From: a bacterium
GTDB taxonomy: Bacteria; Vulcanimicrobiota; Vulcanimicrobiia; Vulcanimicrobiales; Vulcanimicrobiaceae
Reading direction: 5' to 3'
Assembly (NCBI GenBank): GCA_028869385.1
Contig: JAGWSR010000061.1
Span: forward strand, 3,526-67,525
Length of the DNA stretch: 64,000 nt
A program made the position numbers and the translations under genes. The notes under the pieces are model-generated. The model saw only the letters and a list, made by a program, of their open reading frames with translations, made no database searches and had not been told where the DNA came from. Below are positions 47,139-63,070 of the stretch, piece after piece; within the stretch, counting starts at the first letter, position 1, and each line of letters starts with the position of its first letter.

Positions 47139-47173
47139 GCAGCGGGACTCCCGTACTCAAAGACTCTGGTTGA

Positions 47174-48358: not shown

Positions 48359-48401
48359 CCGAAGGGTAGGGCCGCGTGAAGGGCTAAGAGACAGCCTGAC
48401 A

Positions 48402-48453: not shown

Positions 48454-48480
48454 TTGTTCTCGTCAACGTCAGGAGTAGCC

Positions 48481-49131: not shown

Positions 49132-50372
49132 AGCCTACGATTGCATTGATAGACGCGCTACAGATCCTCGATTCGCGCGGCTCCCCGACCATCCGCGTCT
49201 TCACGCAGCTCTCTGACGGCTCCGCCGGCATCGCGAGTGCGCCATCCGGGAAGTCGACGGGCAAAGCCGAGAAGCTGGAGCTTCGCGACCGCGGAGGCGC
49301 CTTTTCGGGACGCGGTGTCCTGAATGCCGTGGAAAACGTACGCGGACTCGTCGGTCGCTACTTTTACGGCCGCGACGCGAGCGATCCCGCGGAGATCGAC
49401 CGTGCGCTCGTCGAGCTCGACGGCACGGCGGACCGTTCGAACCTCGGCGCCAACGCGATGGTCGCCGTTTCGATGGCTATTTGGCGCGCCGTTGCGCAAA
49501 GCCGTAGCCAGCCGCTCTGGAAGACGATAGCCCAGGACTGGGATCACAATCTTCCGGTCCCTCTTTTCAACGTCGTCAACGGCGGCGCGCACGCGTCAAA
49601 CGGGCTGCCTTTGCAAGAGTTCATGCTCGTTCCGCACGGCCTGCCCACGACGAGTGAAAGAATCCGATGCGGCGCCGAGGTCTACGCCCAGCTTCGTTCA
49701 GGCTTTGCCGAGGCCGGCATGTCCACAGGCGTCGGTGACGAGGGCGGCTTCATTTTCACCGGCAGACGCGTCGCCGACGCCATCGAGCTGATTATTCGCG
49801 CGATCGAGCGGGGTGGCTACGATGTCGGCGGCGAGGTCTCTCTCGCGATCGACGCTGCGGCGAACGGATTCCGCAACGACGACGGCACCTACAGTCCCGA
49901 ACGCGGCATGAAGCTTACCAGCGAAGAACTCTGCGAGTGGTGGTGCGCGCTCGTCGATAGCGCGCCGGTCGTCATGCTTGAGGATCCATTCCACGAAGAC
50001 GACGCCCGCGGCTGGGGAATGCTCACGCGACGTCTCCAGAGTCACATCACCCTCGTTGGCGACGACATCTTCGTTACCGATCAGGCACGCATACATCGTG
50101 CCGTTCTGGATGGCATCGCGAACGCCGCGCTGCTCAAACCAAACCAGATCGGCACCGTCAGTGAGACTATCGACGCCTGGGCCGAGGCTCGCCGAGGCGG
50201 ATACAAGACTGTCGTCTCGCACCGTTCGGGGGAGACGGCGGACACCTTCATCAGCGACCTCGCTGTCGGAATCGGTAGCGAATACTTGAAATCTGGCGCG
50301 CCGGCGCGCAGCGAGCGCGTGGAGAAATACAATCGGCTACTCGAGATCGAGCGTGAGATGGTGGCGCGGTGA
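49128..50372 (+). CDS. Divergent enolase paralog (riboswitch-controlled)
   Basis: Inner ATG of ORF 48996..50372. ILDSRGSPTI..APSGKSTGKAEKLELRD..GVGDEGGF..LAIDAAANGF..LEDPFHEDD..LVGDDIFVT..LLKPNQIGTVSET..SHRSGETADTFISDLAV..LKSGAPARSERVEKYN. All catalytic and Mg ligand positions are recognisable, but the active-site loop is altered. Confidence 0.85.
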   Translation: MKPTIALIDALQILDSRGSPTIRVFTQLSDGSAGIASAPSGKSTGKAEKLELRDRGGAFSGRGVLNAVENVRGLVGRYFYGRDASDPAEIDRALVELDGTADRSNLGANAMVAVSMAIWRAVAQSRSQPLWKTIAQDWDHNLPVPLFNVVNGGAHASNGLPLQEFMLVPHGLPTTSERIRCGAEVYAQLRSGFAEAGMSTGVGDEGGFIFTGRRVADAIELIIRAIERGGYDVGGEVSLAIDAAANGFRNDDGTYSPERGMKLTSEELCEWWCALVDSAPVVMLEDPFHEDDARGWGMLTRRLQSHITLVGDDIFVTDQARIHRAVLDGIANAALLKPNQIGTVSETIDAWAEARRGGYKTVVSHRSGETADTFISDLAVGIGSEYLKSGAPARSERVEKYNRLLEIEREMVAR

Positions 50373-52027
50373 TCGCAGTACGTATGGGCGATAGTAAACT
50401 GTTCGTGGGACTCGCGACGCTTGCGCGGCGCTATGGAGACGATGTGCTGCGCGGAGACATCGACTTCATCATCGATCAGTCATTGCATGATACGGCCTCG
50501 GTCGCCGTGATCGGGCAGTTCAAACGCGGCAAGAGCACCCTGTTGAATGCGCTGATCGGCGAGGACATTCTCCCAACAGGTCGGCTTCCGCTGACGGGCG
50601 TTACCACGCGTATTCTGCACGGCGACCGTGGAGCAGTCGTGCACTTCGCGGGCGGCCGAACGGAACGGGTTCCCCTGGACGATCTCAAGCTCTACGTCAC
50701 CGAAGAGCACAACCCGCGGAATCTCCGAGGCGTGACGCACGTCGACGTGACGCTGCCGCTCCCGATGCTTCTACATATCGTGTTCATCGATACTCCGGGC
50801 ATCGGGTCGACGTTCGCCCACAACACGCAGACCGCGTATGAAGCAAGCGAACGCATCGATCTCGCTCTTTTCATCACCGGCCCCGAGCCGCCGATAACGG
50901 GCGATGAGATCGCGTTCCTACGGCAGGCCCGAGAGCGCGCCGATCGCGTCATCGTCATCGTCGCTAAGATCGACCTGGTGCCGGGAAGCGAGGCGGAGAT
51001 ACTCGACTTCACACACCATGCGATCAAGGAAGCTGTGGGAACGGCCCTTCCCATCTATCCGCTAGACGCAACGCGCCCGGACGCGCGCATTGCAGCGCTG
51101 CGCGAAGTCATCACCGCCAGCATAGCGGAGGGCGAGGGAAATCTCGCCCGGCGTTCGCTCGCACGTCGCGCCCTCCGTGCGGCGGCGACCATTCGCCGCA
51201 GCATCGCGCTACAGCGAGCGGCGGCGCTCCTTCCAGCGTCGGAGCGCGAGCAGGCCCGCGTACGCTTCGGAGAGATCGCTGACGAGATCGCGGAGCGGGG
51301 CGCCGACCTCATTCGCGCGATCGAACAATTCCCAACAGAAGAGCTCGTATCCGTTGATGCGTTGCTCGAGACGCTTGCCCAAGAGGCCGAGACGGCCGTT
51401 TCGAGTGAGATTGAGCGCTTCGTTACGCTCGACGCCGCTGTCGGCGAGCGCGCACTGTATGAACGCATCGCTGAGTGCGAAACGCAGTGGTCAGCGCACG
51501 TGTCGTCGGCATTGGAGAAGCGGATCGTTAGGCGTCACTCTGCCACGCTACGCCTGGTCACCGAACTCGAACAGCGCTTCGCAGAAGCGGGAAGCGCTGC
51601 GCTGGGATTACGGTGGAATCCGGAGGACGAAGTCGATCGCGCCGAATTCGGAGTGCGGGAGGCCGCGACGCGTATGAACGGCCCGGTCCCGACGACGGGT
51701 TTGGAACTCTTTACCGGAGGGTTGATCGCGACGCTACCCGGATCGCTACGGGCGCATGTGCTACGTAAGCGCTATACGACGCTGATCGCCGAACTTCTCG
51801 ACCGCTCGAAGGGCCGCGTCCGATCGGCCGCTGTCCGATATCTCATGGAATGGCGTCTAGCGAACGTCGGTTTCGTTCGCGAGCGTCTTCTTTCGGCGCG
51901 CCGCATCGTCGAAGACGCCTTCGATAGCGCGGCGGAGACGGGCGACGAAACGGATCTCACGGCGGCTCTGGAGCGGATGAACGGCGACGAACGGATTCTC
52001 GATGCGGTTGTGGCGGCGTTCCCGTAG
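50369..52027 (+). CDS. Dynamin-like GTPase (bacterial DLP) 1
   Basis: GTG overlaps the enolase-paralog stop (GTGA). G1 is VIGQFKRGKSTLLNAL. G2 is LPLTGVTT. G3 is FIDTPGIGS. G4-like is VAKIDL. The C-terminal half is long and helical. Confidence 0.75.
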   Translation: MIAVRMGDSKLFVGLATLARRYGDDVLRGDIDFIIDQSLHDTASVAVIGQFKRGKSTLLNALIGEDILPTGRLPLTGVTTRILHGDRGAVVHFAGGRTERVPLDDLKLYVTEEHNPRNLRGVTHVDVTLPLPMLLHIVFIDTPGIGSTFAHNTQTAYEASERIDLALFITGPEPPITGDEIAFLRQARERADRVIVIVAKIDLVPGSEAEILDFTHHAIKEAVGTALPIYPLDATRPDARIAALREVITASIAEGEGNLARRSLARRALRAAATIRRSIALQRAAALLPASEREQARVRFGEIADEIAERGADLIRAIEQFPTEELVSVDALLETLAQEAETAVSSEIERFVTLDAAVGERALYERIAECETQWSAHVSSALEKRIVRRHSATLRLVTELEQRFAEAGSAALGLRWNPEDEVDRAEFGVREAATRMNGPVPTTGLELFTGGLIATLPGSLRAHVLRKRYTTLIAELLDRSKGRVRSAAVRYLMEWRLANVGFVRERLLSARRIVEDAFDSAAETGDETDLTAALERMNGDERILDAVVAAFP

Positions 52028-52733
52028 TCGTCTCTCCGAAGCGCTCGACGCGGTGTGCGGAAAGGACCGCGCGCGGCGCGATGTCCTCGCGCGAAGCGTC
52101 GGCTCTCCCTTCATCGAGAGCGACGTCGCGGCGGCGCTGCTCGGCGAAGATCTCTGGTATCCTCCGCTCGTCGAATTTAGGAAGTACCTGGAAACAGCGG
52201 TCGAGCGACCGCATCTCTGGGACTTCCCGTTTAGCGAGTCAGGACGTTGGCCGAGCTCCACGTGGCGGGCGCTCTCGCTGCACACGCGCATCGCCCGAGC
52301 GCGCATTGCCTCACCGGCTCACGAGTCAGATTTCGTTTTTGCCGCTCTTGCATTCGGAATGCGTGAGCGCGAACTTCGAACCGCATTTAAGGAACTGCTT
52401 GCGATCGGACTCTGCCGTGAGATCTGTCGTGGGATCTATCGCGTGTATGCTATCGCTCCTTTGGCGGCGCTCGATCATGATCTTCATCTTGTCAGAGTCA
52501 TTGCCCATTGGCTGGAGATGCTCGCGCAGGCCGATCACGTTGCTGAAGATCGGGCGCCTACTGGCTATGAGGTTCACGGTTACGTCGAAGCCTGCACCTG
52601 CTGCAAGAAGCGGTGGGGTATCCGTCCACGTGCGCCGGATTGGGTACCGCCGTTTCACCCGGGCTGCCGCTGTTTCGCGCAGCCGCGATTTGCGAGTCGA
52701 ATACCACCAATCAACATGGAGGAATCTCGGTGA
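52002..52733 (+). CDS. Hypothetical protein with C-terminal Phage_Mu_F/SPP1 gp7-like motif
   Basis: ORF 52002..52733. The C-terminal ..WVPPFHPGCRCFAQP resembles the PP.H.NCRC signature I recall from MuF-like head-morphogenesis and polymorphic-toxin domains. It overlaps DLP1 by 26 nt. Confidence 0.5.
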   Translation: MRLWRRSRSRLSEALDAVCGKDRARRDVLARSVGSPFIESDVAAALLGEDLWYPPLVEFRKYLETAVERPHLWDFPFSESGRWPSSTWRALSLHTRIARARIASPAHESDFVFAALAFGMRERELRTAFKELLAIGLCREICRGIYRVYAIAPLAALDHDLHLVRVIAHWLEMLAQADHVAEDRAPTGYEVHGYVEACTCCKKRWGIRPRAPDWVPPFHPGCRCFAQPRFASRIPPINMEESR

Positions 52734-52888
52734 CCGTCCCAGGCAAGGAACATCCAGACTACTGGCTTTACGAGCAGCTGCAGACGATTCAGATGCTGCT
52801 TCTCGCGATGGCCCTCGAACAGGAAGGCCAAGAACAAGAATCGTCGGATCTTCTCGACGAAGCGCGTAAGAGGATAATCGGAGCATGA
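52730..52888 (+). CDS. Small acidic ORF (52 aa)
   Basis: GTG overlaps the upstream stop (GTGA) and its stop overlaps the downstream ATG (ATGA). VTVPGKEHPDYWLYEQLQTIQMLLLAMALEQEGQEQESSDLLDEARKRIIGA. Confidence 0.3.
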   Translation: MTVPGKEHPDYWLYEQLQTIQMLLLAMALEQEGQEQESSDLLDEARKRIIGA

Positions 52889-53967
52889 GAGGGCGTTACG
52901 TACCACTCGTGATGCTGACCCTCGTCGCACTCGCCGGAGCGGCGGTACCATCGCGCGATGCACTGATGCCGCGCTACGCCCATATCTTCGTGATCATGGA
53001 AGAGAACAAGGACTACGGCGAGATCGTTGGCAGCCCTGATGCGCCGGCGATTACGGGCCTCGCGAAAACCTACGGCGTCGCGACCGAGTTCTATGCCGAG
53101 ACGCACCCGAGCGAGCCGAACTACGTAGCGCTCGTTGGCGGCTACACCTACGGTATTCGAGACGACGACGCATTCTATTGCCGACCAAACGATGCCCGTC
53201 CGCTCTGCCCCCACGCCGAGCGCTCTGGCTATGTGAATCACACCATCGATGAGCCGAATCTCGCGACGCAGCTCGAGTCCGAGCATCTCACTTGGAAGAA
53301 CTACAACGAATCGCTTCCGGAACCGGGATCGCTCGTCGTCATCGCGACGGACGAGAAGGCAAAGGACGTTCCCGCTGCTCTTCCCGTGTACGCCTCAAAG
53401 CACTCGGGCTTCGTGAACTTCGCTTCCGTGCAGAATGATCCGAATCGCAAGACCCGCCTGGTCGGGTTCGATGCCCTTCGGCAAGATCTCGCATCCGGCA
53501 ACGTTCCAAGTTTTTCGTTCATCATTCCGAACTTGTGCGATGAGATGCATGGCGCGGGCGACGAGGATGGTGCGCCCGAAGACTGTAGCTACTCCCATCT
53601 CCATAAGCTCGTCTGGCGGGGCGACGAGAACGTCCACGCCCTCGTCACGGCCATCATGGCTTCCCCCGTGTGGAAGGCGTCGTCGAATGCCGCCATTGTC
53701 ATCACGTTCGACGAAGACGACCACGGCGGCAAGGCGCATTGCTGTGGCGCGGACACGAATGACCCCGCGAATTCCGGCGGCGGGCACATCGCGACGATCG
53801 TGGTGACGAATCATGGACCGCGCGGCGTTGTCGATCCAACACCATACAGCCACTACTCGCTGCTGCGGACGATCGAGGACGCCTTCGGCATTCACGAATA
53901 TCTCCGCCTCGCGGGCGCGCCGGGTGTGGTTCCGATGACACCGCTCTTTGCAACGCAGAGCCGATAA
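52885..53967 (+). CDS. Secreted phosphoesterase-family protein (AcpA/phospholipase C-like)
   Basis: Signal peptide: ..VMLTLVALAGAAVP. HIFVIMEENKDYGEIVG... ..SEPNYVALVGG.. ..CDEMHG... The order is consistent with the PF04185-type phosphoesterase fold. This is a moderate-confidence call from memory. Confidence 0.6.
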   Translation: MRGRYVPLVMLTLVALAGAAVPSRDALMPRYAHIFVIMEENKDYGEIVGSPDAPAITGLAKTYGVATEFYAETHPSEPNYVALVGGYTYGIRDDDAFYCRPNDARPLCPHAERSGYVNHTIDEPNLATQLESEHLTWKNYNESLPEPGSLVVIATDEKAKDVPAALPVYASKHSGFVNFASVQNDPNRKTRLVGFDALRQDLASGNVPSFSFIIPNLCDEMHGAGDEDGAPEDCSYSHLHKLVWRGDENVHALVTAIMASPVWKASSNAAIVITFDEDDHGGKAHCCGADTNDPANSGGGHIATIVVTNHGPRGVVDPTPYSHYSLLRTIEDAFGIHEYLRLAGAPGVVPMTPLFATQSR

Positions 53968-55196
53968 TGAACCCGATCGAGCTTTCCTCGCACAAGCGAA
54001 AGCGCAATCGTTCGCTCGCGTTCGTCTTGCTTATCGGCGTTCTGAGTCTTTTCGCGGACTTCGCGTATGAGGGAGCGCGCAGCGTCACGGGGCCGTTCTT
54101 GGCGTTGCTGGGCGCAGGCGCAGTCGTCATCAGCAGTGTGGGCGGCTTTGGTGAGCTCCTCGGTTACGGGTTGCGGCTCGTGTCGGGCCCGCTGGCCGAA
54201 CGCACGGGCCGCTATTGGCTGATTACGATCGTTGGCTACGTCATCCAGCTTACGTCCGTTCCACTCCTCGCTTTCGCGCGCACCTGGCCGGAGGCTGCAC
54301 TCCTGATCCTCCTCGAGCGCACGGGGCGCGCCATCCGCAATCCACCGCGCGACGCGATGCTTTCGTTCGCTGCGAAGGAGATGGGTTACGGGTGGGGATT
54401 CGGCGTGCATGAGGCACTCGATCAGTGCGGTGCGCTCATCGGTCCCCTCGTCGTCGCCGCGATGCTAGCTGCGCGGCATTCTTATAATATGGCGTTCGCT
54501 GCATTGGCGATCCCGGTGCTCATTGTGTTCGCGCTTCTCGTGACGAGCCGCATCCTCTATCCAAAGCCGCAGGATCTAGAAGCCGAGGTCCTCGACATCC
54601 GCGGCTCCGGGCTGCCCAAGGTCTACTGGATCTATCTCGTCGGGGCTGCGTTCGTAGCCGCCGGCTTCGCCGATTTCTCGCTGATGGCGTTCCATCTGCA
54701 GCAGGGTGTCCCGCTACAGCCCTCCATGGTGCCGATCTTCTACGCCATCGCCATGGCCGTGAGCGGTATTTGTTCGTTGGTCTTTGGGAAGCTCTTCGAT
54801 CGATACGGCATGATCGTCTTGCTGCCGCTGACGCTCGTCGGCGCGGCCTTCGCTCCGCTCGTCTTCCTCGGCGGCTTTTGGGCATCGCTCCTTGGCATCG
54901 CCATTTGGGGCCTCGGGATGGGGGTCCACGAGTCGATCATCCCCGCTGCCGTTGCACATATGGTTCCTCCTTCGCGGAGGCCGTCGAGCTACGGCATTTT
55001 CACCGGTGTCTATGGCATCGCGTGGTTTCTCGGAAGCGTCGTGATCGGTCTGCTGTACGCGAAGAACATTGGCGCGCTCGTGGCGTTCTGCGTCCTCACG
55101 CAACTCGCTGCGATCCCCATCTTCATTTGGGTCGTTCGGCGCCTCCCGCTAAAGCACTCTGATGCACAACTACCGCCATTCGGGAGGGAAAACTAA
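53967..55196 (+). CDS. Major facilitator superfamily transporter
   Basis: About 12 TM helices. ..LAERTGRY.. loop motif. TAATG overlap with the upstream gene. Confidence 0.75.
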   Translation: MNPIELSSHKRKRNRSLAFVLLIGVLSLFADFAYEGARSVTGPFLALLGAGAVVISSVGGFGELLGYGLRLVSGPLAERTGRYWLITIVGYVIQLTSVPLLAFARTWPEAALLILLERTGRAIRNPPRDAMLSFAAKEMGYGWGFGVHEALDQCGALIGPLVVAAMLAARHSYNMAFAALAIPVLIVFALLVTSRILYPKPQDLEAEVLDIRGSGLPKVYWIYLVGAAFVAAGFADFSLMAFHLQQGVPLQPSMVPIFYAIAMAVSGICSLVFGKLFDRYGMIVLLPLTLVGAAFAPLVFLGGFWASLLGIAIWGLGMGVHESIIPAAVAHMVPPSRRPSSYGIFTGVYGIAWFLGSVVIGLLYAKNIGALVAFCVLTQLAAIPIFIWVVRRLPLKHSDAQLPPFGREN

Positions 55197-56494
55197 TGCT
55201 TACTCGCCACGACGCTGTCGCAATCTCGAAGGAGATACTGAGTCTGGTCTTCGGGGAAGGTTATACTTCGAGATTCTCCGTCCAATTGTGGGATGGCAAT
55301 GTTCTCGGAAACCCCGACGTCGCGCCCTTCACACTTCTACTCAACGATCCGAGTACGTTACGGGCAGCGCTACGACCACCGATAGATTTGAACGCTGGAA
55401 GCGCGTTCGCGTCCGGTTTGTTTGATTGCCGAGGTGATCTCGAAGCGGCCGTCGACGAAATACTCAACGCGATGAACCGACTATCACCGACGACCGTTCT
55501 GCGTGTCGGACTGCTGTCACGACGCCTGCCGAAGGCGTTAAGCCCGCAGTTGCAAGGCGCGCGCCTGGAGGGGAAACAGCATTCGCAAAAGCGCGACCGT
55601 AAAGCCGTCTCGTTCCACTACGATCAGCCAGTGCCGTTTTACGGATCGTTCCTCGATCCCGAACTCGTTTATTCATGCGCATACTTCGACGATGGCGTAG
55701 CGGACCTTGATGAGGCGCAAACTCGAAAGATCGATTACACCCTCGCAAAGGTGCGGCTGGCGCCGGGTGAGCGGCTGCTCGACATCGGGTGTGGGTGGGG
55801 CGCTCTTGTCATCCGCGCCGCGCAGAAGTTCGGCGCATCGGCATTGGGAATCACGCTCAGCACGACGCAATATGAAGAAGCGCGGCGGAGAATCGAACAG
55901 GCCGGCGTCGGGCACTTAGCCCACGTCGAACTTCGCGACTATCGCGACCTACCGAAACAGTCCTTTGACAAGTGCGTGAGCATCGGCATGTTCGAGCATG
56001 TCGGAGCGCGGATGCTGCCGACGTACTTTCGAACGGTTTTTGACCTGTTGAAGCCGGGCGGTTTGTTCCTCAATCATGGAATCGCGGAACAGACCCCAGG
56101 GAGAAGGGGCGGGAAGGTCAGCGGCTTCATGAAGCGATTCGTCTTCCCCGACGGGGAACTCGTCGCGGTATCGCGCGCACTTCTCGATGCGGAACGGTCC
56201 GGATTCGAAGTACGCGACGTCGAGAGCCTCCGCGAGCACTATGCCGAGACGCTGCGCCACTGGGTCCGCAATCTCGAACGGAACCGCGATATGGCCATAG
56301 CCATCGGCGGCGAGCAGACGTACCGAGTCTGGCGCCTCTATATGGCCGGCAGCGCGCAAGGCTTCCGATCCGGGAGGCTAGGCGTCTTCCAGTCACTCCT
56401 GGCCAGGCCGACGCCGTCGGGAGGCGTACCGATTCCCTCAACGAGACGTGATCTCTATGCCACGAACGCCCTCATAGGTCAATCAGCTTTTTAG
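55196..56494 (+). CDS. Cyclopropane-fatty-acyl-phospholipid synthase-family SAM methyltransferase
   Basis: SFHYDQPVPFYGSFLDPELVYSCAYF.. LLDIGCGWGALVIRAA.. SIGMFEHVG... HWVRNLE. TAATG overlap with the MFS gene. Confidence 0.8.
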   Translation: MLTRHDAVAISKEILSLVFGEGYTSRFSVQLWDGNVLGNPDVAPFTLLLNDPSTLRAALRPPIDLNAGSAFASGLFDCRGDLEAAVDEILNAMNRLSPTTVLRVGLLSRRLPKALSPQLQGARLEGKQHSQKRDRKAVSFHYDQPVPFYGSFLDPELVYSCAYFDDGVADLDEAQTRKIDYTLAKVRLAPGERLLDIGCGWGALVIRAAQKFGASALGITLSTTQYEEARRRIEQAGVGHLAHVELRDYRDLPKQSFDKCVSIGMFEHVGARMLPTYFRTVFDLLKPGGLFLNHGIAEQTPGRRGGKVSGFMKRFVFPDGELVAVSRALLDAERSGFEVRDVESLREHYAETLRHWVRNLERNRDMAIAIGGEQTYRVWRLYMAGSAQGFRSGRLGVFQSLLARPTPSGGVPIPSTRRDLYATNALIGQSAF

Positions 56495-57997
56495 GAACTG
56501 CGCCGCTTCGCCGAAGACCCGATAATAGATGTCCTCGCCGTAGCTCGTTGGGAGCGGTTCCTCTTCCGCCAGCCTAAAGGAACGCTCCCCGTCGTCGCTT
56601 CGCGGTGCGCGCAGAAACAGCGTAGTGTCCTTGCGTTCCACCCAGAGGCGATGCGCGAATTCGTAGAGATGGGTGACGAAGGCGACCTCGACGCCAGAAT
56701 CCACGAGTGCTTCCGCAATCTGGCGTGCGATCTCCGACCCTTCGCGGTCATTGGTCGCAGCGAAGGACTCATTGAAAAGGACGAATGCGTTAGGGGACAG
56801 CTCAGCGACCATGTCGTTCATGCGCTTCAACTCCTCGTCGAACTTCCCGCTCTCCATGCTCGCATCTTCCTCGCGCTTGTAGTGCGTAAACACCCCCGAC
56901 GAAAGAGAGGCGCGGTAGGAGTTCGCGGGAACGAACATTCCGCATTCCATCATGAGCTGCGCAATGCCGAGGCTTCGGAGGAACGTCGACTTCCCTCCGC
57001 GATTCGCTCCGGTTATCACGATCATCGATTTGCCGTCAGCGGCGGCATCGTTTCCGACGATACGTTCTTTTGCAAGCAAAGAAAGACACGCATCATAGAG
57101 GTTGGCGCCATCTCGGATCCTCGCGCCGGCCGGGGATATGGCGGGGAAACACGTCGGCTCGCCCTTTGCCGTAAGCTGTTCCTGTAGGTTGACGCAGCCG
57201 AGATAGAAGGCGAGTTCCGAACGCAACGTCGTGAAGAACGCCAAGATATGCTCAGTCGACTGCCCGAGCGCGTCGGCGACGAGATTGATTCCGCGGTCTC
57301 CGAGCTCGGATAGCGCACGCATCCCGCTCTCGTCGCGAGGAGGGATATGATAGGTCAGCCCATCCTCCGCCGGCGGCAGTATGCGCTCAATCCAGTTCTT
57401 GTTCGGCCGCACGAACTCGCGCAGGACGTAATCCGTGCCGTGGTTTCCCTTTCCGAGCCGCACGCTCATCAGGATCCCATCCGGGAACTCCACTGTTTTC
57501 AGCAACCCGTCGACCTTCGCGAGATAGTCGTCTTCGAGTTCGGTCTCTAGCATCGAGAAGAATCGCCTAAATCCGTCGGACGCAAACCAGTCCGCATGCG
57601 CCTCGGCAATCAGGCGCATCCGCTTCAGGATTGCAAGGAACATCGGTAAGATATCGCGCCCGCGCCGTAAGATCGTCGAGGGGTATCGCGATGTCAAGCC
57701 CCAAAACGACCGCCGCTCTTCCGTGATGGCCTCCTCGGCGAGGGCATATATCTCGCGGACGATCTCCCGATGGGCAAGACAATCGCGCAGCACGGCTTGA
57801 CGATAAAGGAGTGCGTCGACGTCGCGGAGCCCGCCCAGTACCACCTTCGGCGCGACCGTCGGGATCACGCGGTCCTCGCCGGCCATGGCGTCGAAGAGCG
57901 TTTGGAGTCCGAGGTCCTGGATAAGGTCGTCCGCGTTCTTCGGCAGCTTCGTGTCCCAGTCGAAGTCCCGCTCGCGATGAAGCAGAAACGCCTTCAC
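56483..57997 (-). CDS. MutS-related ABC-type ATPase (domain III/V only, no mismatch-binding or Smr domain) B
   Basis: GTG start overlaps the upstream stop (TAGTG). ..MIVITGANRGGKSTFLRSLG..SGKFDEELKRMN..LFNESFAATNDREG..FVTHLYEF. Confidence 0.75.
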   Translation of the reverse strand: MKAFLLHRERDFDWDTKLPKNADDLIQDLGLQTLFDAMAGEDRVIPTVAPKVVLGGLRDVDALLYRQAVLRDCLAHREIVREIYALAEEAITEERRSFWGLTSRYPSTILRRGRDILPMFLAILKRMRLIAEAHADWFASDGFRRFFSMLETELEDDYLAKVDGLLKTVEFPDGILMSVRLGKGNHGTDYVLREFVRPNKNWIERILPPAEDGLTYHIPPRDESGMRALSELGDRGINLVADALGQSTEHILAFFTTLRSELAFYLGCVNLQEQLTAKGEPTCFPAISPAGARIRDGANLYDACLSLLAKERIVGNDAAADGKSMIVITGANRGGKSTFLRSLGIAQLMMECGMFVPANSYRASLSSGVFTHYKREEDASMESGKFDEELKRMNDMVAELSPNAFVLFNESFAATNDREGSEIARQIAEALVDSGVEVAFVTHLYEFAHRLWVERKDTTLFLRAPRSDDGERSFRLAEEEPLPTSYGEDIYYRVFGEAAQFLKS

Positions 57998-59541
57998 TAC
58001 CGCTCCACTTTCTTGAAACGATCGTGCAGTCGATCGTAAGTAAGGCCGTAGCGCTCGGCGAGAGAGAGCGCGTAGGCCAGACCATCAGCGGGTCTTCGTT
58101 CCAATCGGAACGTCCGTTTGCCCGGATCGACCGCATCCACAACGCTCACCATGCTAACGGTCTTCTCGCTCATGGAGGCCAGTTCGTCGATAAACGTCAC
58201 GCAGACGCAGAGCGCGTCGAGTGCGAGTATCCGTTCCATGATGGCCCGGGCGAGCACGCTTGCGTCGCGAGCGGTCGTCGATGCGAATATTTCGTTGAGG
58301 ATGATGATGCTGTTGGAAGTTGCGTGTTCCAGAATATCGTGAATCCGCAGAATGTCGTCTTCGAGCTTGCCGCGCCCCGAAGCCGGATCTTCCTGCCGTT
58401 CGAAGTGAGTGAAGAGTTCGTCGAAGAGAAACGTGGTTGCTTCGCTTCCTGCTACGCGGCATCCGAGCGCCGCGAGATAGTGGAGTTGGCCGAACGTTCG
58501 CGCCAGCGTCGTTTTGCCACCCTGATTGGGGCCAGAGATGACGAGGACGCGCTCAAGTCCGCTTAGCTCGAAATCGTTGGTGACGACGGGCCCATTGGTA
58601 GCTACGATCCGGTGCGCTAGCGCCATGTCGTACGTCTCCCGCGCGCGTACGGTTTTACTGGCGGGGTCGACCCGGGGATAGCACGTTCGGAGTTCCGCTG
58701 CCTCGAAAATCTTCGCATAGTCCGAGGCGGCGAGATAGAATTGGATCTCGCGATCGAACCGCGCGACCGTTTCGTCGATGAAGTCCGCGTGACGTTCGGC
58801 GAAGCGATCGAGCTCGGTGAAAAGCTCGGGATAGAGCTGAGCCACGAACTCGAGGACCTTTTCCTCGATGTGATTCAATGCGCCGCGGTCGTAGAACGTC
58901 ACGAGGTAGCTCTTCGTAGCGCCCTGCCGAAACCTCGAAAAGGTCTCGAGCACGGCTTCGACCAGATCGCGCTCCTCGCCGCAGGGCCGAACGCTCACTC
59001 GCTCTCCGCCTACGAGCACGTCGTACGTAACTCCCGAGAGCCCCATCCGTAACGAGGCCACGTCGTCCGCCAGCCGGAGGAAGGTTTCAGACGTCCGATA
59101 TTGTTCGAGGAAGTCGCGGAATGCAACGAGCCCATGTGACCGAACCGACGGACGGCGAAGGCCTTCGTTTAGGTTCCCGATGGCCGCGCAATACGTTTCG
59201 GCGGCATCGAGACGCCATCTCTCCCGTTCATATCGGTAGCGCAGCTTTGATTCGGTTTCCAACGCCGCCCGCACCGCGCGCATCGCGTCTGCAAAGGTGT
59301 CCACGCACTTGCGCGCCTCGTCGTTCTCTAGGTCGCGGGATATCTCGTGGCGATAACCGATGGCATCAACGTCCCCGAGTGGTACGCGAAACAGCGGTTT
59401 GAGATCGTACGCTTCGCGTCCCGCAAACATCGCATCGGCGATCTGGTCGAGATAGAGGTCCGCGAAGAACGGCGGATCCACCGCCCGCTCCGTAGTCCTT
59501 TGGTCGCCTCGAGCCGGGAAGAGAAGGCTATTGAATGTCAT
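57997..59541 (-). CDS. MutS-related ABC-type ATPase (domain III/V only) A
   Basis: Inner ATG 59541 of ORF 57997..59622, overlapping the DLP2 stop (ATGA). ..VLVISGPNQGGKTTLARTFG..RGKLEDDILRIH..ILNEIFASTTARDA..VTFIDELA. Confidence 0.75.
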   Translation of the reverse strand: MTFNSLLFPARGDQRTTERAVDPPFFADLYLDQIADAMFAGREAYDLKPLFRVPLGDVDAIGYRHEISRDLENDEARKCVDTFADAMRAVRAALETESKLRYRYERERWRLDAAETYCAAIGNLNEGLRRPSVRSHGLVAFRDFLEQYRTSETFLRLADDVASLRMGLSGVTYDVLVGGERVSVRPCGEERDLVEAVLETFSRFRQGATKSYLVTFYDRGALNHIEEKVLEFVAQLYPELFTELDRFAERHADFIDETVARFDREIQFYLAASDYAKIFEAAELRTCYPRVDPASKTVRARETYDMALAHRIVATNGPVVTNDFELSGLERVLVISGPNQGGKTTLARTFGQLHYLAALGCRVAGSEATTFLFDELFTHFERQEDPASGRGKLEDDILRIHDILEHATSNSIIILNEIFASTTARDASVLARAIMERILALDALCVCVTFIDELASMSEKTVSMVSVVDAVDPGKRTFRLERRPADGLAYALSLAERYGLTYDRLHDRFKKVER

Positions 59542-61130
59542 CGCTCGCGCGGTATCCCGTTCGCGCCTCTGCTGCCTGCGACGAGCTCGACCCCGCGGCG
59601 ATCGGCGTCGCGTTCTTCCCAATCCATCAGGTAACGCCGCGTTGCATCGAACTTTAGGACGTATCGTCGCATGTCATCGGCAGTCGTCGTCATCGCCTCC
59701 GCCTGCCGCTTCGTTGCCCGCCTTACGAGCTCGGTATCGCGCAGTGTTTTGGCAACAGCGCGAAAGTGTCCGAGGCAGTACGAGCGGCTCCCGTCTTCGG
59801 TGTCCTCGCGTATCGCACGCGCAGCCTCTCCAACGGCGGCGAGCTCGGCGTCGGAACGGACGCGGCATACTGGGCATCGCCCTCCTTCGTCGGCAATCTG
59901 GCTTATAGCGTCGATGGATCCGCCGACGGCGAGAGCGTCCGCGGCGCGCTCCAACCGCTCGGCCGCGCGTATTAGCGAAACGGAGAGTGCAACACAGGCA
60001 CCTCGTGGGCCGGCGAATGCGTGATATTGCCAAGCGTGGACGCCGCAGAACCCGCCTTCCGCGAGCTCGCTACGTTCGCGCTCAGACTTAACCAGTGCGT
60101 ATTGGTAGCTGCTGAGAAAGGCTACGACGGCGGCGCTCTCACGCTCGCAGACGGCGCATCCGAAGAAGCGCGTTTCGCGAGCACTGTCAAGCGTCGGCAG
60201 CCGTTTGGCTTCAATCGGGCCGCCGCGAATTGCCTGCGCCAGAGCGCGAAGGTTCGCCCGTTCAGAATCGCAGTCGGGAAGATCGTCGACTACGTCTGCG
60301 ATTCTGTCGCACATAACACGAAGAAAATCGGCCTGTTTGCGCTCGACAAGGAAGCGCATCAGGTGCGCGTAGAGACCGTCGATGCCGAAATGTTGCCCCT
60401 CGCGCGCGCAAACGGAGAAAACTTCCGGCCCGTCGATACCGATGCTCCGCAAGACATCGAGCACGTAGTCGCGGATCTTTGCTCGCTCCCCGGGATCCAC
60501 GAGATCGGCCTTATTTACGATGAAGAAGAGCCGTCGACCGTATGAACGCACGAGCTGGACGATGCGCATCTCGTCCTCCGAAAGCGGGCTTTCGAAACTC
60601 GTAACGAGTAATACCGCGTCGGCCTCCGGTAGAAATGCATGCGTCGTTGCGGTGTTCTCGACCACGGGGGAACCGACGCCCGGTGTATCGATGAAGTGGA
60701 ATCCCCTGCGCAACAGATCTGCTGGCAGTTGGATGCGGGCGGTGGCAATGCCAAGAACGTTTCCTGGGTTCCCGCGCTCGGTAACGTACTCGTCAAGTCG
60801 ATCGAGCGACACGCGCTCGGGAATCGAGCGCTCCTGATATTCGATTGTTGCGATCTCCTCGCTGCCGTATGAGACCGTGGTAATCACCGATGTGAGCGGC
60901 AGGATGTCCACCGGAAGTCGCGTGGTCGAAAGCAATGCGTTCATAAGCGATGTCTTCCCACGATTGAAGCGGCCGGCCACGACAAGGTTGAAGCGGTCTT
61001 CGGCGAGACGAGCAAAGATATCGCCGACGGCGGTGTCCCCGGAGTCTCCTTCGCCTCGATGCTTAAGCGCGGCCGAGCGCACGATCTCCGCGAGCGCGAA
61101 CTTCACGTGCTCGTATTCGCGTAGGTCCAT
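59538..61130 (-). CDS. Dynamin-like GTPase 2 with Cys/His-rich C-terminal half
   Basis: G1 is VAGRFNRGKTSLMNAL. G2 is LPLTSVIT. G3 is FIDTPGVGS. G4 is VNKADL. The C-terminal region has CAVCE..(31)..CGVH and CPVCR..(29)..CLGH modules. Confidence 0.75.
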   Translation of the reverse strand: MDLREYEHVKFALAEIVRSAALKHRGEGDSGDTAVGDIFARLAEDRFNLVVAGRFNRGKTSLMNALLSTTRLPVDILPLTSVITTVSYGSEEIATIEYQERSIPERVSLDRLDEYVTERGNPGNVLGIATARIQLPADLLRRGFHFIDTPGVGSPVVENTATTHAFLPEADAVLLVTSFESPLSEDEMRIVQLVRSYGRRLFFIVNKADLVDPGERAKIRDYVLDVLRSIGIDGPEVFSVCAREGQHFGIDGLYAHLMRFLVERKQADFLRVMCDRIADVVDDLPDCDSERANLRALAQAIRGGPIEAKRLPTLDSARETRFFGCAVCERESAAVVAFLSSYQYALVKSERERSELAEGGFCGVHAWQYHAFAGPRGACVALSVSLIRAAERLERAADALAVGGSIDAISQIADEGGRCPVCRVRSDAELAAVGEAARAIREDTEDGSRSYCLGHFRAVAKTLRDTELVRRATKRQAEAMTTTADDMRRYVLKFDATRRYLMDWEERDADRRGVELVAGSRGANGIPRER

Positions 61131-61135
61131 TGCAG

Positions 61136-61573
61136 TTATGCCTCGTCTTCCGAGAGGTCCCGGCGAATCGGTTGGGTATCGAAGTATTCATCCTCTACAG
61201 TCTCATAGGCCCGGAGGCGCTCCTTGAGGGTGCCAATCCGCACCTGGAGTTGACGTGCACTCTGCATCGTCAATTCCAGCATGCCGTATGCGCCCGCGTT
61301 TCTCATCCGCTCGGTCTTCAAATCCCGCATGCACTCGTAGAGCTTGAAGTGCTCGACCGAATACTGCTGCTCCAGTGCATAGAGCATCGATCCGCGCTCG
61401 GCGTGCTCTCGCTGGAGTGCATGGAGTCGTTCCAGCGTCTCTTCGTCGGCGGGACGCATAGCTTGCTTGCAATCGCTGGTTCGAACGGGCGCGGGCCGGC
61501 GTCGCACAAACGAGTATGCGGCGAGGACAATCGTCGTCAACACGTTTACGCCAGCGTGGAAGGTTTTGGCCAT
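61136..61573 (-). CDS. Hypothetical N-terminally anchored coiled-coil protein
   Basis: Inner ATG 61573 of ORF 61136..62197. TM helix VNVLTTIVLAAYSFV, then a heptad-like helical region. Its stop lies 5 nt before the DLP2 ATG. Confidence 0.4.
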   Translation of the reverse strand: MAKTFHAGVNVLTTIVLAAYSFVRRRPAPVRTSDCKQAMRPADEETLERLHALQREHAERGSMLYALEQQYSVEHFKLYECMRDLKTERMRNAGAYGMLELTMQSARQLQVRIGTLKERLRAYETVEDEYFDTQPIRRDLSEDEA

Positions 61574-62274
61574 GGCAACCTGTTCTTGGGGCGATCGCTC
61601 CCATGCACGATCTCGCGCACGCACGCTTCCCGCGCACCCGCGCGAAGGCTCGACCATCGAAGCTTTCTTACGACTGCGCCGATCCCATACGGGGCCGCGC
61701 CGAAGGTGATGCGGCCTCCCTCGAGGAGCGCGTATGCCGCGACGCCCTGCTTTGCGTTCTGACCGACGCTGCCCGGGTTCACGATGACCTTGCCGCCGTA
61801 GCGCCAAACGCCTTGCCGATGCGTATGCGCCGTGACGATCACGTCCGCGCGCGGAAATGCGCGAGTGATACGGTGCAACTCGTCCTCTGTCGGCATGAGG
61901 TAGCGATTGTAATCGCCGGGATAGGCGTGAACCAACGCGATGCGCCTTCCCTCCACCTCGATCTCGAGTTCCGGCGGCAGCGTCGAGAGCCAGGCGAGAA
62001 GGCCTGGCTTGAGCACGCGCCTCGTCCATTCGCGACTCTCGGTCCCGGCTTCGACGAGATGCTCCGGCAGAAGATGAGGCACGCCATTCGCAACTGCATC
62101 GTCCTCTTCGCCGCGAATGCAGGCCGACGGCCGCGTCATGAGCCATTCCACGCATTCGTTTGGCTCGACGCCGAATGTGACGAGGTCGCCGGCGCAAAGA
62201 ATCGCGTCAGCTTCGGGAAGCACCGACAGCGCGTCAAAGTTCGCGTGAATGTCGGCGATGATGAGTGTTCGCAT
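61546..62274 (-). CDS. Calcineurin-like metallophosphoesterase (YfcE/MJ0936-like)
   Basis: Inner ATG 62274 of ORF 61546..62310 (AGGAG 8 nt upstream). MRTLIIADIHAN.. AILCAGDLV.. RIALVHAYPG.. VIVTAHTHR.. VNPGSVG. Confidence 0.75.
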   Translation of the reverse strand: MRTLIIADIHANFDALSVLPEADAILCAGDLVTFGVEPNECVEWLMTRPSACIRGEEDDAVANGVPHLLPEHLVEAGTESREWTRRVLKPGLLAWLSTLPPELEIEVEGRRIALVHAYPGDYNRYLMPTEDELHRITRAFPRADVIVTAHTHRQGVWRYGGKVIVNPGSVGQNAKQGVAAYALLEGGRITFGAAPYGIGAVVRKLRWSSLRAGAREACVREIVHGSDRPKNRLPWPKPSTLA

Positions 62275-62299
62275 GATGCTTTCTCCTACTCGTATCGAA

Positions 62300-62350
62300 G
62301 TAGGAGCCATCAGTCGCGCGACGCGACATCCTCGGCGGGCCCCATCGCCT
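62300..62350 (-). promoter_or_regulatory. Fluoride riboswitch (crcB motif) RS4
   Basis: Minus-strand RNA AGGCGAUGGGGCCCGCCGAGGAUGUCGCGUCGCGCGACUGAUGGCUCCUAC. P2 is GUCGCG/CGCGAC in place of the usual ACCGCC..GGC arm. It is followed by an 8-bp anti-SD hairpin (CUCCUACU/AGUAGGAG). Confidence 0.75.
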
Positions 62351-62356
62351 CATGAA

Positions 62357-62830
62357 CTAGTAGACCTTTTCCGGCGACGCGGCGCTGATGTACTGTCCCC
62401 GCTCGTGCGTCGCGAAGAGCGCGGCGTGCGGCATATGGTGTCGGATGTCGGGGTGGTCGAGCGGCAGCCATTCCAACGTTTGGGCGCCGTCGCCGGGCAT
62501 CGGCTGATGGCGCTCCTCCGACGTGATTTCGGCATAGAAGCATATTTCGAGCACAGGCGTCGACCAGCGGTCTTCTCGGCGCTCGGCGACGAACGCGATC
62601 TCCGTCGTCTCGATTTCGTAACCCGTTTCTTCGAGCGCCTCACGAACGGCGGCGCAGTCGAGTGATTCTCCGAGGCGAGGCGCACCGCCAGGTAGATTCA
62701 CGTGGGCGACAGCAAGTCGAGATTCGCGAACGACGAGTATCTCGTCGCCCGGCCGCAGGATTGCAGCGGAAACTCTTACGCGGTACGGATCGGCGTTGCT
62801 CACAAAAATAGCCCCCATTCGATGCTTCAC
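62357..62830 (-). CDS. NUDIX hydrolase
   Basis: Nudix box GGAPRLGESLDCAAVREALEETG (GX5EX7REUXEEXGU). GTG 62830 or ATG 62818 could be the start. Confidence 0.8.
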   Translation of the reverse strand: MKHRMGAIFVSNADPYRVRVSAAILRPGDEILVVRESRLAVAHVNLPGGAPRLGESLDCAAVREALEETGYEIETTEIAFVAERREDRWSTPVLEICFYAEITSEERHQPMPGDGAQTLEWLPLDHPDIRHHMPHAALFATHERGQYISAASPEKVY

Positions 62831-62838
62831 GAGACCGA

Positions 62839-62890
62839 ATAGGAGCCATCAGCCGTCAAGACGGCGGTTCGAGGCGGTGCCCCATCGCCT
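62839..62890 (-). promoter_or_regulatory. Fluoride riboswitch (crcB motif) RS5
   Basis: Minus-strand RNA AGGCGAUGGGGCACCGCCUCGAACCGCCGUCUUGACGGCUGAUGGCUCCUAU. It lies immediately upstream of the NUDIX gene. Confidence 0.85.
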
Positions 62891-62976
62891 ATTAAGAGTT
62901 CCGTTCGTAGGTACCCAAGAGTCTCCCTTTCCCAAGAAGGACGCCGCACCGCGTTTGAGAACGGGGAGAGCGAAGA

Positions 62977-63037
62977 GGGTGGTGGAGTCCGCCCGGATGC
63001 GGACGCATCCGAACCGCCGTAAGGCCAATGACTCCTG
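62977..63037 (+). promoter_or_regulatory. Variant fluoride riboswitch RS6 with an extra inserted hairpin
   Basis: GGGUGGUGGAGUCCGCCC-[GGAUGCGGACGCAUCC]-GAACCGCCGUAAGGCCAAUGACUCCUG. The pseudoknot pairs GGAGUC with GACUCC. The 3' block GCCAAUGACUCCU resembles the GCUAAUGACUCCUAC form I recall from Bacillus crcB RNAs. It is followed by a 10-bp anti-SD hairpin. Confidence 0.6.
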
Positions 63038-63070
63038 ACAATGACCGCGTCTTGTTGTCAGGAGACCCTG

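Follow-up and report, generated by a model that had tools for sequence, protein, structure and literature searches.

What function could unite a metallophosphoesterase (MPE), a small coiled-coil protein, a short dynamin-like protein (DLP) and two MutS-like ATPases that are encoded one after another behind a fluoride riboswitch? Such a string of genes is located on the minus strand of a 64,000-nucleotide stretch of DNA from a bacterium of the family Vulcanimicrobiaceae (GenBank assembly GCA_028869385.1, contig JAGWSR010000061.1, positions 3,526 to 67,525; hereinafter, the window). An earlier note on this DNA, made from the sequence alone, described these genes as a riboswitch-gated five-gene module and a candidate undescribed system, took their tight coupling as a sign of a stoichiometric complex, and offered three readings: (a) a damage-response machine acting under fluoride stress, (b) fluoride-insensitive substitutes for poisoned enzymes, and (c) an SbcCD/Lamassu-like defense module wired to a fluoride sensor. 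The analysis described here indicates that the genes probably form a fluoride-inducible accessory stress operon. Comparative genomics makes us fairly confident that this operon is modular rather than a source of a single complex: three separable units of the fluoride regulon appear to have been joined in the lineage of the window, as opposed to an obligate five-subunit machine. The first unit consists of a Nudix hydrolase and a YfcE/SapH-like MPE, the second of a BDLP/IniA-type GTPase with a Zn-type DUF6062 tail and a lineage-specific coiled-coil partner, and the third is MutS-A/MutS-B, a predicted obligate asymmetric heterodimer.

Gene composition of the operon

The operon spans window positions 56483-62898 and includes, in this order, the genes for the Nudix hydrolase, MPE, the small coiled-coil protein, the dynamin-like GTPase DLP2, MutS-like A (MutS-A) and MutS-like B (MutS-B). 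Its features, all on the minus strand, are the following:

62833-62898, minus: fluoride riboswitch aptamer 1 (crcB motif, RF01734); Rfam 50.8 bits, E 3.9e-11, model positions 1-64, complete
62807-62850, minus: expression platform of aptamer 1, alternative hairpin; folding energy -23.8 kcal/mol (z -4.57), a stability reached by 0 of 200 shuffles
62357-62803, minus: Nudix hydrolase; Pfam NUDIX 55.7 bits; open reading frame (ORF) open from 62830
62294-62358, minus: fluoride riboswitch aptamer 2, directly before MPE; Rfam 31.5 bits, E 8.9e-6, under the gathering score of 34
62283-62306, minus: expression platform of aptamer 2, alternative hairpin; folding energy -19.9 kcal/mol (z -3.45), a stability reached by 1 of 200 shuffles
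61546-62274, minus: MPE, calcineurin-like, of the YfcE/SapH-like subgroup; Pfam Metallophos_2 65 bits
61136-61573, minus: small coiled-coil protein; 145 codons, with the start at ATG 61573 or at an internal Met
59538-61130, minus: DLP2, short bacterial dynamin-like GTPase; 530 aa; Pfam Dynamin_N 81.7 bits (cut-off 27)
57997-59541, minus: MutS-A; 514 aa; Pfam MutS_V 66.7 bits (cut-off 30.2)
56483-57997, minus: MutS-B; 504 aa; Pfam MutS_V 68.9 bits (cut-off 30.2)

The four gene junctions reported earlier can all be read in the sequence: the MPE gene, with its stop codon at 61546-61548, overlaps the small-protein ORF, counted from ATG 61573, by 28 nt; a 5-nt gap separates the small protein from DLP2 (TAA-ctgca-ATG, with the DLP2 ATG at 61130); DLP2 and MutS-A have ATGA (59538-59541) in common; and MutS-A and MutS-B share TAGTG (57995-57999), with a GGAG ribosome-binding site upstream. 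The overlapping junctions suggest that the genes downstream of Nudix, from MPE to MutS-B, are translationally coupled. The domain assignments in the earlier note agree with the Pfam matches for MPE, DLP2, MutS-A and MutS-B listed above, and the five-gene chain is real, but the operon begins further upstream than had been proposed, with the Nudix gene (62357-62803) located between aptamer 1 and MPE. A consensus promoter and terminator scan of the operon yielded nothing useful.

Two predicted fluoride riboswitches in series

Aptamer 1 scores above the Rfam gathering score for RF01734 (34 bits), as do its orthologues in three related loci that were recovered in the genome searches described below (L001-L003; 54.3, 51.5 and 48.1 bits, respectively). 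The hairpin that follows it combines the 3' strand of the aptamer, CUCCUAUUCG, with a GGGGG ribosome-binding site and has a U-rich tract behind it, so this platform can be predicted to act as a terminator-like, sequestering hairpin with a long stem; a simple terminator scan made no call here because the loop is longer than 8 nt.

Aptamer 2 is a diverged copy, with changes in the AACC linker and in P2 and with an unaltered P1 stem and 3' UGAUGGCUCCUAC. The three aptamers at the same position in L001, L002 and L003 score 43.0, 39.0 and 42.4 bits, above the Rfam threshold, and therefore, the window copy is probably a diverged orthologue and not a chance match. In the platform hairpin of aptamer 2 (CUCCUACUU/GAGUAGGAG), the pseudoknot strand of the aptamer pairs with the AGGAG ribosome-binding site of MPE. 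Thus, both platform hairpins include the 3' CUCC strand of the aptamer together with a ribosome-binding site, and compete with the aptamer fold. Judging from these sequences, both aptamers would follow the standard ON-switch logic of fluoride riboswitches. The proposed riboswitch gating is supported by these findings, with the amendment that there are two aptamers rather than one, each with its own expression platform, and it is very likely that the operon is controlled by fluoride riboswitches and belongs to the fluoride regulon.

Comparative genomics of the operon

A DLP profile scan of 185,579 species genomes identified 245 relatives, and 80 loci (1.3 Mb) were fetched; most of these come from Acidobacteriaceae or from Alpha- and Betaproteobacteria, and the rest from Eremiobacterota and one member of Desulfovibrionaceae. 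A covariance model constructed from the window aptamers produced 174 hits in these 80 loci; these show strong covariation, with 93.9% of the cells paired and 161 double-sided changes compared with 53.7 in shuffles, and Rfam's own model confirmed 24 aptamers in six loci. Among the homologous DLP genes of other genomes that are of the CCCH type (two CxxC...CxxH motifs), 59 of 76 have an aptamer within 10 kb, that is, the arrangement is well beyond chance. ORF clustering combined with Pfam searches shows that the DLP-anchored loci carry genes for CrcB, DUF190, enolase, pyrophosphatase, Usp, Nudix, an MFS transporter and cyclopropane-fatty-acid synthase, as well as HycD-like genes, a HEAT-repeat protein, a small AAA16 ATPase and further DLP paralogues; a Na/H exchanger is also found among the neighbors in the related loci.

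The partners of the CCCH-type DLPs vary. Within the same operon (n=76), these DLPs are accompanied by a HEAT-repeat protein in 19 cases, MPE in 17, the MutS pair in 16, CMAS in 11 and AAA16 in 7; two strings recur, MPE-CMAS-HEAT-DLP among Acidobacteriaceae and aptamer-DLP-MutS-MutS among Proteobacteria.

The MutS pair was also traced independently, in 80 MutS-A-anchored loci fetched from metagenomes. In 51 of 53 loci, the gene directly after MutS-A is MutS-B, and the two are usually found alone behind an aptamer. At least 22 of 69 loci have an aptamer no more than 450 nt ahead of MutS-A, a count made with a home-made model that is biased to GC-rich variants and missed a Thermoanaerobacter aptamer found by Rfam; the Rfam model detects aptamers in 7 of 9 loci missed by the home-made one, four of them directly upstream of MutS-A. 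In the Thermoanaerobacter locus (L081), the aptamer (7857-7930) immediately precedes MutS-A, followed by MutS-B, and a CLC gene adjoins. Moorella carries an aptamer-dynamin-enolase string, in which the dynamin is of the non-CCCH type, like DLP1, the second DLP of the window, along with an aptamer-led chain of NhaP, Usp, MFS, MutSA and MutSB. Among the well-flanked MutS-anchored loci, 23 of 25 contain a fluoride marker and 2 of 25 a CCCH-type DLP. These families are thus co-conserved with crcB-motif RNAs across phyla, but the five-gene set is not fixed.

These results bear directly on the possibility that MPE, the coiled-coil protein, DLP and MutS-A/B constitute a single stoichiometric machine that repairs a specific fluoride-induced lesion, for example, with a membrane-tethered DLP bringing the MutS clamp and the phosphoesterase to damaged DNA or RNA at the membrane. 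The start and stop codons that overlap or nearly overlap along the entire chain are what such a machine would predict, as is the identical gene order in L001-L003 and L086, which spans metagenome-assembled genomes of Eremiobacterota and Acidobacteriota; furthermore, DLP-MutS-MutS or MutS-MutS-DLP arrangements with gaps of about 25-60 nt are present in at least 16 loci of Alpha- and Betaproteobacteria, and MPE-(CMAS)-HEAT-DLP operons in at least 15 loci of Acidobacteriaceae. However, the complete gene order of the window is found elsewhere only in L001-L003 and L086, with L087 showing the same order minus MPE and DLP. The DLP is missing beside the MutS pair in 23 of the 25 well-flanked loci and in Firmicutes; conversely, only 33 of the 76 DLP loci have the MutS pair, and 21 of the 76 have MPE, within 10 kb. 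The small protein is confined to five loci, in one of which (L087) it precedes MutS-A in the absence of both MPE and DLP, and the variable partners (HEAT, AAA16, CMAS, enolase) are those expected of shuffled regulon members. With the MutS pair being autonomous and the DLP partners interchangeable, the five-protein complex suggested in the earlier note is not borne out, and we regard a single machine as rather unlikely.

Two of the recurring partners of the modular operons are common neighbors in their own right. Of the 76 CCCH-type DLP genes, 32 have a gene for the HEAT-repeat protein of about 326 aa (e.g., L062:1222-2202) no further than 10 kb away, and 25 have one for the AAA16 P-loop protein of about 251 aa (e.g., L078:13119-13874) at such a distance, the latter often as pyrophosphatase-AAA16-DLP or AAA16-MutS-MutS; both families are direct neighbors of DLP or MutS genes. 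No NCBIfam names were found for the recurring partner families (HEAT, AAA16, f70, f56 and others). A locus of Mesorhizobium composti (L017) is denser than the window, with 10 Rfam aptamers in 21.6 kb and two MutS-A/B pairs. The plasmid collection yielded a single match (L166; NZ_CP053712.1, 8534-12417), from a plasmid of the cultured member of Acetobacteraceae Lichenicola cladoniae, where a dynamin-family gene is divergent from a crcB-usp operon and a gene for a sodium:proton antiporter is close by.

MutS-A and MutS-B

Pfam searches detect neither the mismatch-binding domain I nor the connector domain II in MutS-A and MutS-B, with MutS-A starting at the core domain, and likewise no KOW or Smr domains, both proteins ending after the ATPase and helix-turn-helix regions; MutS-A gives additional weak matches to generic AAA domains under the Pfam cut-off. 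AlphaFold models cover MutS-A and DLP2. The MutS-A model (pLDDT 83.4) matches MutS, MutSbeta and the MutS2 core 7vuf (TM-score of 0.60 normalized to 7vuf) in Foldseek, over about 500 columns and with E values of about 1e-17 to 1e-15. Given a structural match of this length, MutS-A is modeled to comprise core, lever, clamp and ATPase, without domains I/II and without KOW/Smr. The earlier label of a MutS domain V ATPase holds insofar as MutS_V is present and the mismatch and Smr domains are not, but MutS-A, as modeled, contains more than domain V.

The two proteins are paralogues (BLASTP E value of 7e-27), with 29% identity over the ATPase domain. In both, Walker B is Asn-Glu in place of the canonical Asp-Glu: N416 of MutS-A aligns with D693 of E. 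coli MutS, and FNES of MutS-B aligns with the DE of MutS2 and Taq MutS, with THLY retained. The H-loop His is replaced by Phe in MutS-A (F450, aligned with E. coli H728) and retained in MutS-B. Across all fetched loci, all 110 A-type sequences and 73 of the 76 B-type ones have the Walker-B Asn; the N/F combination is found in 101 of the 110 A-type sequences, and N/H in 59 of the 76 B-type ones. Judged from these residues, N/F plus N/H is the family-defining signature of an asymmetric heterodimer and suggests an asymmetric ATP switch with unusual Mg coordination. In E. coli MutS, the D693N replacement (PDB 3k0s) is reported to abolish Mg coordination and hydrolysis. MutS-A/B can be predicted to be an obligate heterodimeric unit that is autonomous among fluoride operons.

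Assignment of this pair to three known families was considered and rejected. MutS-A/B reach 75-77 bits with the mutS1 models of NCBIfam, compared with cut-offs of 480-642, and lack the defining domains of canonical MutS1; they score 80 bits against the cut-off of 400 for MutS2, with no KOW or Smr; and they match KamC (NF052383) at 75 bits (MutS-B) and 59.9 bits (MutS-A) against a cut-off of 300, in the ATPase domain only.

KamC also inspires another explanation for the pair, namely, that MutS-A/B, perhaps together with DLP, HEAT and AAA16, might act on proteins as a chaperone or reactivase that strips Mg-fluoride-phosphate from poisoned enolase or pyrophosphatase. KamC is the best NCBIfam match of MutS-B (E 5e-21), has the same size (about 508 aa) and its ATPase domain is at the same position. 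Moreover, there are no DNA-repair genes nearby, enolase, pyrophosphatase and Usp are frequent direct neighbors, and the Walker-B Asn suggests a switch and not a fast ATPase. Against this stand the scores far under the KamC cut-off, the whole-length fold, which, lever and clamp included, fits the DNA- and ribosome-binding MutS and MutS2, and the lack of a client enzyme that consistently adjoins the pair; the analogy itself draws on an NCBI database name (lysine 5,6-aminomutase reactivase). On balance, we consider a reactivase to be unlikely.

The dynamin-like GTPase DLP2

Returning to the modular stress operon, the GTPase of its second unit consists of a Dynamin_N G domain, a helical neck and a C-terminal DUF6062-like helical domain with two CxxC...CxxH motifs. 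G1 (GRFNRGKTS), G3 (DTPG) and G4 (NKAD) are invariant across the DLP2 family, and so are eight residues of the tail, C325, C328, C362, H365, C419, C422, C452 and H455. The DUF6062 match is 19.3 bits in the window DLP2, and 49 of 74 family members match this domain. The best fold matches of the DLP2 model (pLDDT 85.7) are BDLP (2j69), IniA (6j73), the Campylobacter DLP (Cj-DLP; 5owv) and mitofusin; the neck helices are modeled, and the alignment with BDLP and IniA has a TM-score of about 0.4. A membrane role of DLP2 is suggested by these fold relatives, by the cyclopropane-fatty-acid synthase that is frequently encoded in the same operon and by the borderline-hydrophobic partner protein.

An HMMER search of a protein library clustered at 50% identity found the DUF6062-like domain in 667 clusters, always at the C-terminus; the longer proteins that were checked are Dynamin_N fusions of about 550 aa or about 750-870 aa, and the others are short and possibly fragmentary. 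No Rosetta-stone fusion of this tail domain to MutS, HEAT or AAA16 was seen, and a word-indexed homologue search with the C-terminal domain of DLP2 alone returned no match.

The Nudix hydrolase, MPE and the small protein

The Nudix protein is 67% identical to its orthologues in L001-L003. Its start is likely to be GTG 62803, given that the resulting N-terminus, VSNADPYRVRVSAAIL, and the spacing from the aptamer fit the L087 orthologue (MNNAGPYRVRVSAAVL), whose own start lies 28 nt downstream of its aptamer. For MPE, the likely start is ATG 62274, behind the AGGAG ribosome-binding site; another ATG, at 62310, falls inside aptamer 2. The closest PDB matches of MPE are 3rqz (1.9e-10) and 3qfm, which is SapH (1e-4), and the NCBIfam YfcE model gives 42.2 bits, under the cut-off of 56. 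Motifs I (DIH), II (GD), IV and V (HTH) are present. In place of the canonical GNH(D/E), motif III is GEED in the window and in L001-L003, and GNHD in the relatives from Acidobacteriaceae; GEED could reflect either an altered metal site or a pseudoenzyme. We also considered an SbcCD/Mre11-like nuclease and rejected it, MPE matching YfcE, 3rqz and SapH (3qfm), not Mre11. Nudix-type Ap4A hydrolases are reported to be strongly fluoride-sensitive, and MPE-type ones are not known to be so.

The small protein belongs to no family in Pfam, NCBIfam or PADLOC, and orthologues were found in L001-L003, L086 and L087 only. It has a conserved core, LYELQQHYSSEHF...VEDEHFDTAPI, with a coiled coil and an acidic tail. 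The transmembrane segment that the earlier note ascribed to this protein is borderline (Kyte-Doolittle 1.75 over 17 residues) and weak or absent in some of the orthologues. In L087, which comes from a 405-kb metagenome contig, a small protein lacking the hydrophobic N-terminus is encoded at 7645-7992, between the second aptamer and MutS-A. With MPE and DLP missing there and MutS-A adjoining, the functional partner of the small protein may therefore be the MutS pair rather than DLP.

A tentative model of the operon

We propose the following scenario, in which expression would be gated serially by the two crcB-motif aptamers. When fluoride is absent, each aptamer would lose its 3' CUCC strand to the alternative hairpin: the terminator-like hairpin of aptamer 1 would conceal the ribosome-binding site of the Nudix gene, and that of aptamer 2 the AGGAG ribosome-binding site and AUG of MPE. 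Binding of fluoride would keep the CUCC strand in the aptamer pseudoknot, allowing read-through and translation of Nudix and then the coupled translation of MPE, the small protein, DLP2, MutS-A and MutS-B. The logic of the operon would be the same as that of riboswitch-controlled enolase and pyrophosphatase, that is, a supply of extra or fluoride-tolerant metal-dependent phosphoryl-transfer proteins, combined with the repair of secondary damage.

Under this scenario, Nudix and MPE might clear nucleotide-derived phosphoesters, such as dinucleoside polyphosphates, while fluoride-sensitive hydrolases are blocked. DLP2, probably together with the second DLP (50369-52027), would contribute to membrane upkeep against HF influx and acid stress. 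MutS-A/B could act as an ATP-switch clamp on nucleic acid or on a nucleic acid-protein complex, and the Walker-B Asp to Asn replacement in both subunits would plausibly confer insensitivity to trapping by Mg- or Al-fluoride. Each of these specific biochemical roles is offered tentatively. The altered metal-site residues make fluoride-tolerant phosphoryl-transfer proteins plus damage control seem the most economical reading, and provide circumstantial support for the fluoride-insensitive substitutes of reading (b); the damage response of reading (a) is retained as a candidate.

A more specific possibility, which we put forward as doubtful, is that the DUF6062-tailed DLP and the Asn-Walker-B MutS-A/B are dedicated fluoride-stress machines, with metal sites and partners remodeled against poisoning by Mg- or Al-fluoride, and that, together with HEAT, AAA16 and MPE, they make up a second tier of the response that had not been recognized before. 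If so, this tier would guard the membrane and a nucleic-acid or protein substrate instead of exporting the ion.

Several observations argue against these interpretations or temper them. With respect to regulation, aptamer 2, being below the Rfam gathering score and without the usual AACC linker, may be weakened. With respect to the proteins, GEED might turn MPE into a pseudoenzyme. DLP2 contains no recognizable transmembrane segment or paddle (maximum hydropathy of 1.44), and its Zn-type tail and frequent adjacency to MutS imply that its substrate could be the nucleoid or a protein rather than the membrane. The MutS pair is accompanied by neither a nuclease or Smr partner nor nearby DNA-metabolism genes, so that a nucleic-acid substrate is read from the fold only. 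With respect to modularity, the tight overlaps and the recurrent DLP-MutS-MutS operons with gaps of about 50 nt in Alpha- and Betaproteobacteria are compatible with a physical interaction between DLP and MutS-A/B. Finally, the comparison has its own biases: the aptamer model was built on the window, so scores for close relatives are inflated; the compared loci come with crude ORF calls and single-linkage clustering; and they include the near-duplicates L041/L043, L045/L048, L071/L072, L118/L119 and L152/L155.

The fluoride island and its mobile-element setting

The other features of the window that are relevant to the operon are the following:

30379-30450 and 30510-30581: two tRNA genes, upstream of the island
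39250-42441: MobA/VirD2 relaxase fused to a TraI/RecD-like helicase
43617-45282: AbiEi (DUF6088)/AbiEii toxin-antitoxin pair, just upstream of the fluoride island
45353-45417, plus; 47168-47228, minus; 48394-48459, plus: three further fluoride aptamers (Rfam)
47372-47722, plus: second DUF190 gene, between the pyrophosphatase and enolase aptamers
47723-48358, plus: HAD-family hydrolase, between the same two aptamers
48394-56494, plus: second fluoride operon, convergent with the first; in order, aptamer, 225-aa ORF (family f56), enolase (48996-50372), DLP1 (50369-52027), 262-aa ORF, PF04185 phosphoesterase (52885-53967; acid-phosphatase/PLC-like), MFS transporter, cyclopropane-fatty-acid synthase (55196-56494)
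62969-63044, plus: weak divergent aptamer; 33.5 bits, with a 15-nt insertion after P1
63047-64000, plus: HycD/NuoH-like membrane subunit, behind the 62969 aptamer, running past the window end; 44% identical to the L035 homologue

Altogether, the window contains six fluoride aptamers within about 18 kb, four of them above the Rfam gathering score and two, with 31.5 and 33.5 bits, just under this score. The genes behind them are DUF190-CrcB, pyrophosphatase, enolase-DLP1, the MPE operon, Nudix and the HycD/NuoH-like gene. In L001-L003, the equivalent HycD/NuoH-like gene leads a formate-hydrogenlyase/antiporter-like cluster, with Usp last. The HAD hydrolase and the second DUF190 gene are further members of the fluoride regulon of known types. 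DLP1 lacks a Cys/His tail, and its identity to DLP2 (38%) is confined to the G domain. The final stop of the second operon overlaps the MutS-B stop region by 12 nt. The operon is likely to be one arm of a fluoride-resistance island of about 18 kb, at window positions of about 45.3-64 kb.

The relaxase-helicase, AbiEi/AbiEii and the tRNA genes upstream mark this island as mobile-element cargo, and the upstream genes are consistent with an integrative mobilizable or conjugative element that carries fluoride resistance. The horizontally acquired island next to AbiE that had been postulated previously is thereby substantiated.

The same setting had kept open a defense function, in the form of an anti-phage or anti-plasmid module of the SbcCD/Lamassu or dynamin/LeoABC type behind a fluoride sensor. 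ATPase-plus-phosphoesterase pairs are common in defense systems, the mobile element encodes a relaxase/helicase and the AbiEi/AbiEii pair, and the G domain of DLP2 has weak PADLOC matches to LeoA (1.9e-14, partial) and LeoBC (2.9e-7), but a defense module is highly improbable given that the best PADLOC E value for MutS-A/B, MPE and the small protein is 0.004, that MPE is not Mre11/SbcD-like, that the MutS-like proteins have the MutS core fold and no SMC/Rad50 coiled coil, that the neighbors across 160 related loci are consistently fluoride genes and aptamers and not defense genes, and that AbiE is more simply read as a stabilizer of the mobile element; reading (c) is accordingly abandoned. A system of the LeoABC type in particular was rejected, the LeoA match being limited to residues 142-300 (51.7 bits), with no LeoBC-like partner and in the context of a fluoride island.

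Significance and relationship to known systems

The fluoride riboswitch "super-regulon" has explained roles only for exporters and a few target enzymes (enolase, pyrophosphatase), and no function is assigned, in the literature searched, to the mutS-like genes beside the riboswitch. Among about 160 relatives, the family of DUF6062-tailed DLPs is as tightly associated with aptamers as the MutS pair, and the DLP and MutS genes travel with the HEAT-repeat protein, AAA16 ATPase, MPE and cyclopropane-fatty-acid synthase on mobile islands in bacteria from acid soils. Some carriers are in culture, namely, Cupriavidus laharis LMG 23992 (L018, with the order aptamer-MutSA-MutSB-DLP), Mesorhizobium composti CC-YTH430 (L017), Rhodopila globiformis DSM 161 (L019), Moorella and Thermoanaerobacter (T. 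ethanolicus, L081), and therefore, the role of the non-transporter fluoride genes is directly testable. Fluoride tolerance is also relevant to organofluorine bioremediation.

A crcB motif preceding mutS genes had already been described by Weinberg et al. in 2010 (PMC2864571), so the claim of an undescribed system does not extend to this link, but no connection between dynamin or DUF6062 and fluoride was found in the literature searched. Specifically, this literature contains no paper that ties a dynamin-like GTPase, DUF6062 or MutS function to crcB or fluoride, with the reservation that gene lists published in 2012 (Baker et al.) may include more; MutS and GTPases are both absent from a 2024 review of the regulon (PMC11139923). 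In Enterobacter cloacae FRM, a fluoride operon that is located on a genomic island and controlled by a riboswitch (ppaC, uspA, eno, gpmA, crcB) has been demonstrated by experiment (PMC5533749). The regulon is known to combine ion export with the replacement or over-production of fluoride-sensitive Mg-dependent enzymes, a strategy that is experimental for ppaC and eno (PMC5533749) and is summarized in PMC11139923.

The window operon resembles described members of the fluoride riboswitch regulon in the aptamer family upstream and in the expression platform that overlaps the 3' strand of the aptamer, and the window overlaps in gene content with fluoride operons known from elsewhere (CrcB, enolase, pyrophosphatase, Nudix, HAD and a formate-hydrogenlyase-like subunit, with Usp in the related loci). 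It differs in having two aptamers in series, and its "mutS" genes form an obligate A/B pair with the Walker-B Asn, which is not described in the literature searched. The closest relatives of this pair include MutS2 (the T. thermophilus core, 7vuf, and the B. subtilis protein on collided ribosomes, 7qv3), which likewise starts at the core, without domains I/II, and has the lever, clamp and ABC ATPase fold, mutS2 being the best or second-best NCBIfam match of MutS-A/B. Unlike MutS2, MutS-A/B are without KOW/Smr and would form a heterodimer of two paralogues instead of a homodimer, with the Walker-B Asn in both subunits and the H-loop Phe in MutS-A. KamC is similar to these proteins in length, layout and a MutS_V-type ATPase without mismatch or Smr domains, but the context of MutS-A/B contains no aminomutase genes, and the scores are 60-75 bits versus the cut-off of 300.

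DLP2 has a G domain and helical neck in common with BDLP of Nostoc (2j68/2j69), IniA of Mycobacterium (6j72/6j73) and DLP1/DLP2 of Campylobacter (5owv). Like IniA, DLP2 would be stress-induced, and as is usual for bacterial DLP pairs, a second paralogue is encoded in the window island. It differs from all three in being shorter (530 aa), with the trunk and paddle replaced by the all-helical DUF6062 domain with eight invariant Cys/His, in the lack of a detected membrane-binding element and in the predicted control by fluoride riboswitches. The window MPE resembles YfcE/SapH (PF12850; 3rqz, 3qfm) in the Metallophos_2 fold, size and motifs I, II, IV and V, and differs in the GEED motif III and in the score under the YfcE cut-off of NCBIfam. 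Collectively, what is already known is the fluoride-riboswitch operon or island as a kind and the crcB-mutS association; what appears to be new, compared with the literature searched, is the Asn signature of the A/B heterodimer, the association between fluoride aptamers and DLPs, both DUF6062-tailed and others, the arrangement of two aptamers in series and the recurring set of unnamed partners.

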